From positions 32,794-96,793 of the forward strand of contig CBFGIY010000001.1 of NCBI GenBank assembly GCA_965648935.1: a stretch of 64,000 bases of DNA, in the 5' to 3' direction. This DNA is from a candidate division WOR-3 bacterium. GTDB taxonomy: Bacteria; Hydrothermota; Tepidihabitantia; Tepidihabitantales; Tepidihabitantaceae. Under the pieces are notes generated by a model, which was not told the origin of the DNA, searched no databases, and saw only the letters and a program-made list of their open reading frames with translations. This document shows positions 29,490 through 32,425 of this stretch, piece by piece. The translations under genes were made by a program, and so were the position numbers. Position 1 is the first letter of the stretch, and each line of letters begins with the position of its first letter.

Positions 29490-29861
29490 TCAGGGCGTCG
29501 GGTCGGGAATCGAAAGCACCTGCAGGCGCAGTGCGTCGAGCACGGTCTTCTTCAGCTCGCGCGCAATCCACTTGTTCTCGACCACCATCGCCTCGCGCCG
29601 CAGGGTCTCGCCCGTGAACCGCCGCTTCTTCTTCCACACCTCGCGGCAGAAATTCAGGTACCCGATGTAGGTGTGGGTCGGCACCCCGGCCTCGCCGAGT
29701 ACCTCCTTGGCCTTGTTCTCCAGTTCGGCCAGCTCCTCCTGCACCTCGGTTTGCTTCGCGACCATCCGCTCGCGCCGCGCATCCACGAGCTTCTTGATGG
29801 TCTCGGTATTGTACTTCAGATTGTAGTTGTAGACGCGGTCGACCCCGGACTTCACTCCCAC
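29490..29861 (-). CDS. 123-aa basic helical protein resembling the Adnaviria (SIRV2-fold) major capsid protein
   Basis: AGGAG RBS, own promoter, host-like codon use. Pattern R...Y..KY, long helix, E..AKEVL...GV......YLNF.R.V, W....L...VLD. The gene itself is solid; the fold call is by eye. Confidence 0.7.
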   Translation of the reverse strand: MGVKSGVDRVYNYNLKYNTETIKKLVDARRERMVAKQTEVQEELAELENKAKEVLGEAGVPTHTYIGYLNFCREVWKKKRRFTGETLRREAMVVENKWIARELKKTVLDALRLQVLSIPDPTP

Positions 29862-29953
29862 GAGTACGCTCCTTTCCCTGCACGCCGCAGCGGCAAGCCA
29901 GCCGCCGCCGCGCGCGCCTCAACCAGTCCTGAAAACGATGCCATAACGCCCCG

Positions 29954-29982
29954 ACTCTAGCGAAATCAGGCCGGCCTGTCAA
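29954..29982 (-). promoter_or_regulatory. sigma70-like promoter of the capsid-fold-like gene
   Basis: Minus strand TTGACA (29982-29977), 17 nt, TAGAGT (29959-29954). Confidence 0.7.
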
Positions 29983-30000
29983 CACCCGACAACCCGCTTA

Positions 30001-30276
30001 CCTCCCGCCGCCCAACCCCTCAACCAACTAACCAACCAGCCCAACTCTCATACCGACCACCCTTGCATCTAACCATATAACCATCAACTACTTATTCAAC
30101 CAAGTACTCATAGGTAGGGGCTAGCCCCCACACTAGCCCCCCGGCAGTACACTAGGCTGAATGACAGACTAAACTAATAGCGATACAGCTCGCCGATAGG
30201 GTAGCTATACGATGCGCTGATTACCGGCCTGCCATTAGGCCAACCCATCAGGCATTCCATCAGCCAGCCGGACCAA
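30001..30276. repeat. 12-bp-phased non-identical array (tract 2) containing the 25-nt motif at 30070-30094
   Basis: 23 of 23 consecutive 12-mers from 30001 begin with C, and 18 of 23 begin CA or CT. Lower GC, C/A-skewed; no ORF listed. Confidence 0.85.
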
Positions 30277-30610
30277 TACCTTACACAGAAGCACCAGTGG
30301 TTTGTATGCCTTGTGCTATGCTCATTCATTCGAATTACTTACGGCTCGGTCACTCGATTCAGACCGATGCTGCGGCGTCCGGCCGAGCCGTGGCGCCCAT
30401 CAACCTGCCGCTTGACGCGAGGCTTCCCAGCAAAACCACGCCGCCGGAGTCCGCTTCCCCGGCGACTCGTGCCAGTCCGTCAATCTGCCCGGCTTGCTGC
30501 CTTCGGCCAGCGACCGCAGTGTTGTCTGCTCCCCGCCGACCGACGTGCCGACCCACCACAGCGAGCGAGCCGGCGGCAGATGCGCCGCCGGCTCATAGAG
30601 ACCGCATTGC

Positions 30611-32425
30611 CTATCGGGTCTTCACCGCCTTCTTGACCCAGCTTTGTCCGCCAGACTCCAGACTGAACAGGTAGATTCCCTTGGGCACGACGTGACCTCT
30701 CTCATCTCGCCCGTCCCATAGCACCTGATGGACTCCGCCCACTGCAGTCCCCTTGCTCAGCTCTCGAACGGCCACTCCGGCAGCGTCCAAGACTCGCAGA
30801 CTGAAGACCGCATTTGCTGGAACGCTGCAAGTCAGCCGGATGCTCCTGCTGAAGTGGCTCGGCCTGACATCTACTAGCCCGACTGCGGCGCGACTCGTCC
30901 CTGGGGCGCCTGACTCGTCGACGGCAACTGTCTCCGTCCCGAAGCGGAAGACTGACGTAGAGCGCCTCGTACCCTCGCCATTTATGGCTAGAACGGACCA
31001 GAAGTACGTGGTGTTGTTCCTAAGCGGTACGACGCTGCCGTAATTGAACGACGTCCCAGTGGAACTACCCACTGTCACCTGCGGTGGATTCTGAGTGTCC
31101 AAGTTGATGTAGTACGACGTGGCACCAGCGGCGGCCTGCCAAGTCATTGTCCCTCGGGTCGCCACGCCTACGGCGTTGTTGACTGGCGTGAGCAATTCGA
31201 AGGGGCCAGGCCCGAGGGGAGCGGTCACGAAGTAGAACCTGCTATTGCACTCTCTCTGTCCTGCGCTATTTCTCGCAACAACGTACCAGTAGTATGTTCG
31301 ACCTGGAAGACAGGAGTAAGGGGTTGATGTCCCCGTGACATTGCGAAGGAATCCTGGAGGATTCGTAAGCCCGAGGTAGACATCATAGCTCGTGGCACCC
31401 GATGAAGACGCCCAACGCAACGTACCAGTGGCCGGTAACTCACGCGAACCGTTTGCTGGGGAGGTCAGGTCAAATGCGCCTGGAGCAGCAATGACCGTGC
31501 TAAAGCTGAACACAGCGTTGCACTGCCTGCTACCTGAGCTGTTTTCCGCAATCACACGCCAGTAGTATGTCTGACCATTATCGCCCGAGTATGTGGTGGA
31601 AGTCGTCGGAGCGGTCACGGTCCTGAGGTACGGAGGCGGATAGGCCGTGCCGAAGTACACCTTGTAGCGCTCTGCATTTGAGGATGTTCCCCACCGCAGC
31701 GTCCCCGAAGTTGGCTGGTTCGTGGCGCCGTCAGTAGGTGATGTGAGACTGAATGGCCCAGGTGCCGGCTGGATACGAACTGCCCCATTCACATACACTG
31801 CGATGCGATTAACCCCCATCGTATCACTACCGTTCCAGATGTTCACCTTAGCAACGTTGTTGCTGGTGTTCCAGTTTATGGAACTCGAAGGCTTGGTGAT
31901 GGACCAGAACCTCCAGGTCTCATCCAAGTAGGGCGTCGTACCAGAAGAGCTATTTATGCTGATCTGGGCGCTCGCGTTGCCTCCCTTTGCCGTTAGAAGC
32001 GCTACCACATCGACATCATCACAGCTCCCGTAGCCGGTCATGTTTAGGTTGTAGTACTCAACCGCGCCACCTGTGACCGGTATCCGCCAGCAATACGGGT
32101 TGCCGCTGATCCACGATATCCTCCCCACCGTGGTGTTGCCGGTACGCCTGAGTGATCCATTCCCGTTTGGATTAGTACCAGTGATTTCCAGAGCTCCTGT
32201 ACTCGTGTTGATGACTGCCTGCTGGCTGAAGTCATCGAACGAACCGTCAGGCAGGTTGCCCTGCCCGTCGACCGGCAACGCAGGCTGACGTGACTCCCCG
32301 ACAGGCAGGTCAAACCTGAGCGTAACCTTGCCGTTTCCTTCATCCGCCACGACCACCGGCTGAACGACTATGGCGTTCTCGATGCCGGCCGCTACGAGCA
32401 TGAGGGCAATCATGCCCACGATCAT
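30611..32425 (-). CDS. Secreted protein with three Fn3-like repeats and FlgD-like C-terminal domain; atypical composition
   Basis: GGAGGT RBS, signal peptide MIVGMIALMLVAAG. Three copies of PG.F.L..P..G......GTL.W.....A..Y...TYYW.V.A.N..G.R. C-term WDGRDERGHVVPKGIYL. Confidence 0.85.
   Translation of the reverse strand: MIVGMIALMLVAAGIENAIVVQPVVVADEGNGKVTLRFDLPVGESRQPALPVDGQGNLPDGSFDDFSQQAVINTSTGALEITGTNPNGNGSLRRTGNTTVGRISWISGNPYCWRIPVTGGAVEYYNLNMTGYGSCDDVDVVALLTAKGGNASAQISINSSSGTTPYLDETWRFWSITKPSSSINWNTSNNVAKVNIWNGSDTMGVNRIAVYVNGAVRIQPAPGPFSLTSPTDGATNQPTSGTLRWGTSSNAERYKVYFGTAYPPPYLRTVTAPTTSTTYSGDNGQTYYWRVIAENSSGSRQCNAVFSFSTVIAAPGAFDLTSPANGSRELPATGTLRWASSSGATSYDVYLGLTNPPGFLRNVTGTSTPYSCLPGRTYYWYVVARNSAGQRECNSRFYFVTAPLGPGPFELLTPVNNAVGVATRGTMTWQAAAGATSYYINLDTQNPPQVTVGSSTGTSFNYGSVVPLRNNTTYFWSVLAINGEGTRRSTSVFRFGTETVAVDESGAPGTSRAAVGLVDVRPSHFSRSIRLTCSVPANAVFSLRVLDAAGVAVRELSKGTAVGGVHQVLWDGRDERGHVVPKGIYLFSLESGGQSWVKKAVKTR

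Follow-up and report, generated by a model that had tools for sequence, protein, structure and literature searches.

Adnavirus capsid proteins are known from archaeal viruses, where they form coats that keep the DNA in A-form. H-NS and ParB-parS load at a high-affinity site, polymerise over hundreds of base pairs and occlude promoters, and we know of no strict 12-bp sequence lattice described for either. Nucleosome positioning is a further case in which a DNA-wrapping protein leaves a weak periodic signal in sequence, there at ~10.5 bp. The adnavirus capsid covers 12 bp per dimer, which is a symmetric homodimer with its two-fold axis through the DNA in SIRV2 and a polar heterodimer in AFV1 (PMC5517147). 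A second account describes adnaviruses as having no apparent connection to viruses of bacteria (PMC10848233). The literature that we searched, mostly outside subscription journals, contained no description of the capsid-like family in bacteria or of phased tracts such as the one reported here.

The locus lies in a stretch of 64,000 nucleotides from a candidate division WOR-3 bacterium (GCA_965648935.1, contig CBFGIY010000001.1, positions 32,794 to 96,793), hereafter the window, in whose coordinates all positions are given (Table 1). A sequence-only reading of the window had pointed out a strict 12-bp phase next to a capsid-like gene, and our recount was identical: cut from 30001, 23 of 23 12-mers begin with C, 11 of them with CA, 7 with CT, 4 with CC and one with CG (CA or CT in 18 of 23). 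Among 2000 dinucleotide shuffles of 29901-30400, scanned at periods 6 to 20, the longest same-base run was 14 and none reached 23. The tract is also poorer in GC than its immediate flanks (0.536 against 0.647 and 0.641) and contains no listed ORF, both as first described; a 180-bp part has three to seven stops per frame, and all six frames are closed. Repeat finders were expected to overlook it, and TRF indeed returned just a 19-bp repeat.

Table 1. Features of the locus, in window coordinates.
Feature	Position	Strand	Basis or remark
12-bp-phased non-coding tract, putative lattice for capsid-like dimers	30001..30276	.	23 units
Palindromic core GGGGCTAGCCCC, putative nucleation site	30117..30128	.	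seen in sequence
Partial second core copy, one 12-bp step on	30129..30140	.	seen in sequence
Terminator-like hairpin between upstream gene and tract	30440..30466	-	consensus match only
Predicted sigma-70 promoter (TTGACA, 17 bp, TAGAGT), in register with the lattice	29954..29982	-	10/12 consensus matches
Ribosome-binding site AAGGAG	29869..29874	-	seen in sequence
123-aa protein with the adnavirus (SIRV2/AFV1-type) major capsid protein fold	29490..29861	-	profile, AlphaFold, structural matches

The phasing therefore stands, but the claim that it comes without any sequence repetition does not: the tract holds a perfect, spacer-less 12-bp palindrome with a partial copy one step on, and a unit shares more positions with its neighbours (4.18 of 11) than with units farther away (2.7-3.9). 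Unit identity is 0.35, under the 70% expected of a tandem minisatellite. Like CRISPR, TIGR and VIPR arrays, the tracts alternate conserved and variable positions beside a nucleic-acid-coating protein. They differ from these in diverging by point changes and in having the promoter downstream of the array, and searches with TRF, Rfam (nothing significant) and the bacterium's own genome (no match above 16 bp) revealed no repeat-spacer structure with targets. On the far side of the tract, the non-coding-looking segment 30277-30610 contains the terminator-like hairpin and a doubtful ORF at 30313-30636; it is 7-11% diverged from the related genome G081 and better kept than the tract. Public sequencing runs contained at most 8% of the words. 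The contigs of one RNA run covered the gene and not the tract, which says nothing about transcription here because they belong to related strains.

The product of the adjacent gene has, as judged by modelling and profile comparison, the adnavirus (SIRV2/AFV1) capsid fold. Pfam and NCBIfam gave no match above cut-off for the 123-aa protein and the ESM Atlas no usable match, whereas a profile of 105 relatives matches the capsid proteins of SSRV1 (E=2.6e-7) and SIRV2 (E=2.8e-6), as well as those of SFV1 and AFV1, and tblastn gave weak matches to rudivirus capsid genes. The AlphaFold model (pLDDT 95) contains the long N-terminal helices and the C-terminal four-helix bundle of the solved adnavirus capsid proteins, and in a structural search of 48,161 chains adnavirus capsid proteins took every one of ranks 1-7 (best Z 14.1, with an rmsd of 4.1 across 122 aligned residues). 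The likeness to the Adnaviria proteins (SIRV2, SSRV1, AFV1; Pfam PF12193) thus extends along the full length of the protein and is detectable by profile. The host genome is bacterial and carries seven paralogues. All 58 genomes sampled from the order gave family members, at 2 to 17+ matches per genome, and none of the 193 genomes sampled from the rest of the phylum did; short contigs whose titles name other taxa hold a few distant matches.

Several features of individual family members deserve mention. Tandem pairs of divergent capsid-like genes occur at five loci (L017, L032, L057, L333, L334), an arrangement reminiscent of the capsid gene pairs in enveloped adnaviruses. Some longer homologues (P0058, P0063, P0066, P0074, P0127, P0145) are extended at the C-terminus, in one case with a LamG-type domain, and have the look of virion proteins from unsampled viruses. 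P0039 has a 150-residue four-periodic extension ahead of the capsid-like domain, which may be a gene call read through an upstream tract or a real fusion. In the source genome, an upstream motif is common to three paralogues; an IS481-like transposase gene follows the C22 paralogue (G000:C22:29289-30383), and a similar reading frame follows the C145 paralogue (G000:C145).

Equivalent tracts, which the sequence-only reading had suggested seeking beside homologues, do occur there, and its own alternative of a tract with no counterpart beside homologous genes fails. At seven distinct orthologue loci (56-93% identity) with enough upstream DNA (an eighth has just 191 bp), the same core lies ~240-300 bp upstream in all seven, in 2-3 tandem copies, and the neighbouring genes differ; the period-12 score is at least 7.8 in six of them and 4.5 in one. 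Pooling 13 tracts on the core gave a sharp period of 12.0 (G 334, compared with 61 at 11.75, 114 at 12.25 and 60 at 10.5), which spans units -8 to about +10 and fades past about 8 units gene-ward and 10 on the far side. Between genera, the identity between arms of orthologous tracts is 0.30-0.32 in register, no better than the 0.30-0.31 after a shift of one or two units (12 or 24 bp), so the phase has been kept and the sequence has not.

The closest comparison is with G081, whose tract is colinear with the one in the window and 20% diverged from it by point substitution rather than block replacement in the arms, without a net indel over its 276 bp. In two neighbouring genes, four-fold sites differ by 10% and 42%, a range that includes the 20% of the tract, and we rejected the idea of a hypervariable or diversity-generating tract. 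Such free divergence could also be read as decay, with the tracts being old 12-bp minisatellites, functionless or phased by mutational bias only, that stand beside genes through shared history. Young arrays of near-perfect units do exist in the family, as the units of L330 and L325 are 0.73-0.75 identical, above the 70% criterion for tandem copies, against 0.35 in the source tract. These arrays suggest birth by amplification followed by divergence, and tracts probably start in this way as tandem 12-mer arrays: tandem amplification of a 12-mer would create a tract, and divergence would follow. As a complete explanation, decay strikes us as quite improbable, since phase, core and promoter register outlast arms that have fallen to background identity, 276 bp show no net indel at 20% divergence, and period 12 alone is in excess in the genome.

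This excess leads beyond the first description, as the tract is one member of a genome-wide family with clade-specific cores. In a period scan of the source genome, the 99.9th percentile is 7.57 at period 12 and 3.4-4.15 at periods 9, 10, 11, 13 and 15. There are 37 period-12 peaks scoring at least 6.5, and 17 of the 20 strongest lie between predicted genes, in all orientations, the other three overlapping weakly scoring ORFs. We considered a genome-wide 12-bp signal and rejected it, as it is absent once the tracts are masked. Six further genomes of the order, sampled over ~1.15 Mb in total, yielded 25 period-12 peaks (9, 2, 7, 6, 1 and 0 in 400, 400, 100, 100, 100 and 48 kb, respectively), compared with one weak peak in ~0.70 Mb from five genomes of other orders, controls whose GC is lower (0.39-0.52). 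The tracts resemble a nucleosome-positioning signal in that their periodicity may be tied to DNA wrapping, but the period is 12.0, the signal is confined to local tracts, and the cores are clade-specific.

A period of 12 would also arise from genes for proteins of four-residue repeats, and the tracts might be remnants of such genes; a related view is that another protein binds them and the capsid link is incidental. One frame is open in 28 of 67 tracts, and some tracts of G229 translate as tetrapeptide repeats with similar starts. However, all six frames carry stops in the other 39, the source tract included, only four of the 37 source-genome peaks score as coding (33 are not coding-like), and the excess of third-position changes expected of codons is absent. 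Against an unrelated binding protein, the core type tracks the clade of the capsid-like protein. We regard both variants as very improbable.

The link to the protein family appears at several levels. A tract lies within 800 bp upstream of 49 of 146 distinct family genes, and the corresponding count at period 11 or 13 is zero. Among 20 paralogues selected from three genomes, 12 possess a tract of their own, 430-580 bp upstream. All 12 genes of the source protein's clade are preceded by a GCTAGC-type core, and other clades have GT-S-AC, GAAC-S-GTTC or GGAC-S-GTCC cores. Mapped on the protein tree (FastTree), core labels need 22 changes against 49.7 when shuffled, and 0 of 200 shuffles were as low, a clustering that partly reflects shared ancestry. 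Of the 57 genes in the largest clade, one has a tract within 800 bp; genes of this mostly tract-less clade are often preceded by an ECF sigma gene together with a small unknown gene (L009, L016, L019, L021, L028, L053, L056 and others). Some tracts of families f4 and f5 are placed on the downstream side of the gene and not upstream (L047, L055, L062, L209, L228).

Not every attempt to formalise the pairing succeeded. At the level of whole genomes, the match between type A paralogues and the number of type A cores (0-21 per genome) is not clean, G129 having 21 cores and no paralogue match at 1e-30. A single symmetric matrix pooled over the source-genome tracts failed (best dyad correlation 0.25) because the tract types differ, and a core list that scores 22 of the 37 peaks against a 4% background was derived from those same tracts and is circular. 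Of 45 tracts, 13 have significant dyad symmetry (p<0.05) and 32 do not; in 12 of the 13 the centre of symmetry is a base pair. Many tracts are strand-polar, which heterodimers could explain.

The tracts are intergenic, multi-copy, palindromic and variable between strains, as are REP/BIME elements, MITEs and iteron arrays. They differ from these in that 39 of 67 have no alignable partner and share period and core only, and in that the linked gene encodes a protein of capsid fold and not a transposase or initiator. A MITE/REP check showed no empty sites, because the flanks are rearranged in the relatives.

With the promoter placed as in Table 1, a gap of 18 bp separates the -35 box from the start of the tract, the distance stated in the sequence-only reading. 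All promoters discussed here are consensus predictions. The distance from the core to the predicted -35 box is 140 bp at this locus, or 8 modulo 12, as in most orthologues; across 16 loci it is 93-165 bp and 7-9 modulo 12 in 14, the two deviating loci belonging to other clades. The ten distinct distances are concentrated in phase at period 12 (R=0.75, p=0.0016) and hardly at 10.5 (R=0.17). Of the type A clade's 12 strong predicted promoters, 11 sit 84 or 96 bp from the core, a result that amounts to two distances, mostly in one genus. Weaker predicted promoters (those of 7 of 19 type A genes and of the type B and D clades) mostly have no common phase.

A period equal to the dimer step, spacer-less palindromic cores, the pairing of core type with protein clade and the fixed promoter phase are best explained by nucleating, polymerising dimers. 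We put the probability at roughly 0.6 that the core is where capsid-like dimers start to assemble and that they then extend in register as far as their own promoter; such binding is a proposal drawn from these patterns. The tract would then be a double-stranded DNA loading site for the protein encoded alongside: a dimer would recognise the palindromic core, further dimers would join in 12-bp steps as in adnavirus virions, and about 20 of them would coat ~280 bp. The 12.0-bp period of the linked DNA is consistent with a dimer coating double-stranded DNA at 12 bp per repeat, and the original suggestion that the phase fits a SIRV2-type capsid dimer is now supported by the fold, the dimer repeat, the orthologous tracts and the promoter register. 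If three to five bases are constrained per step, as we propose, the arms would drift and the phase would stay. That the lattice stops just before the promoter and in a fixed phase points to autoregulation, in its simplest form repression while the filament grows. Such nucleation and spreading would resemble H-NS and ParB-parS, although the capsid-like protein lacks their fold.

The same mechanism may extend to the rest of the family. Other paralogues would act likewise on their own cores, and each genome's dozens of gene-less tracts would serve as additional targets. In sum, the data suggest that a virus coat protein has been reused as a sequence-targeted DNA-wrapping regulator, and a virus-derived wrapping system would have been kept by a whole bacterial order. 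We lean slightly towards the fullest version, an order-wide family of sequence-programmed filaments with a core for each paralogue, 12-bp steps and an A-form, capsid-like chromatin that would control its own promoter and dozens of sites, possibly still with packaging into particles.

A-form helices are also natural to RNA duplexes, and the tract could act as RNA, a guide-like or scaffold array with the capsid-like protein bound every 12 nt. Both strands fold somewhat better than their shuffles (z -2.56 and -2.02), and the strand polarity of many tracts would suit a transcript. Several observations make this reading very improbable: the core palindromes have 0-1 base between their arms, which permits no hairpin loop as written, the promoter is downstream of the tract and the terminator-like hairpin upstream, and a fixed phase to the -35 box is a property of DNA. 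The substitution pattern of the arms and the lack of own-genome matches above 16 bp, both given above, also argue against guides. Neutral decay, an RNA function and coding remnants are all less likely than the readings in which capsid-like dimers bind the tract as DNA.

The main rival, which we consider unlikely, keeps the same binding and changes its purpose: gene and tract would form a minimal selfish or satellite module, and the tract would be the packaging signal at which encapsidation starts, a filamentous particle then coating the flanking DNA (a helper-dependent element or a gene-transfer-agent-like particle). The gene-plus-tract units of the 12 paralogues in three genomes lie in unrelated contexts, with DNA homology almost restricted to the gene, and the numbers of genes and type A cores per genome are volatile. 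For 4 of 4 gene-less tracts, a count without a background rate of breaks, the flanking genes are not adjacent in either G081 or G233, and G233 has 69-77% identical relatives of these tracts at other places. The virion-like appearance of the longer homologues and the tandem paralogues also fit a packaging role.

Against packaging, the occurrence of the family in all 58 genomes sampled from the order suggests that it serves the host. No viral neighbour gene recurs within 1.5 kb of the surveyed family loci or within ~6 kb of 20 loci, nor does any integrase, replication or packaging gene recur near family genes. The surveyed loci share no multi-gene cassette around the paralogues, and the capsid-like gene does not lie inside a viral gene cluster as in a provirus. 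A viral contig collection gave no match to five protein queries and one DNA pattern in a search of low sensitivity that needed short exact peptide patterns, and one genome-collection scan gave none. Three rudivirus genomes contain no period-12 tract scoring at least 6, so the sequence phasing is not seen in those viral relatives. In contrast to the Adnaviria, the bacterial family consists of scattered chromosomal paralogues paired with phased tracts.

If the wrapping reading is true, it would link the realm Adnaviria to bacteria, provide a case of exchange between capsid and cellular protein, and reveal a natural recognition code for a DNA-coating polymer. An order-wide chromosomal family with 12-bp tracts and cores that follow protein clades would count as a bacterial system of a new type, for organising DNA or for regulation, and its paralogue-core pairs are a ready set for studying how a coat protein reads sequence and where assembly begins. 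The idea can be tested on one small protein and a 300-bp fragment.

Two further observations concern DNA-binding systems in these genomes. Replacement of HU/IHF by the capsid-like family can be rejected, since 109 of 111 class genomes still encode HU/IHF; in family f1, many genomes have one HU/IHF match, and most others of the class have two. Genome G000 contains 15 pairs of 16-bp palindromes exactly 32 bp apart (on C3, C12, C16, C26, C35, C61, C68, C70, C98, C107 and others), with at most two pairs at any other spacing. By their consensus, we take these to resemble NrdR boxes. NrdR boxes are described with a spacing of 31-32 bp (PMC2892513). A search for two ribonucleotide reductase families in the 96% complete source genome found neither. 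Ten of 17 palindrome pairs spaced 31-32 bp apart adjoin a tract.
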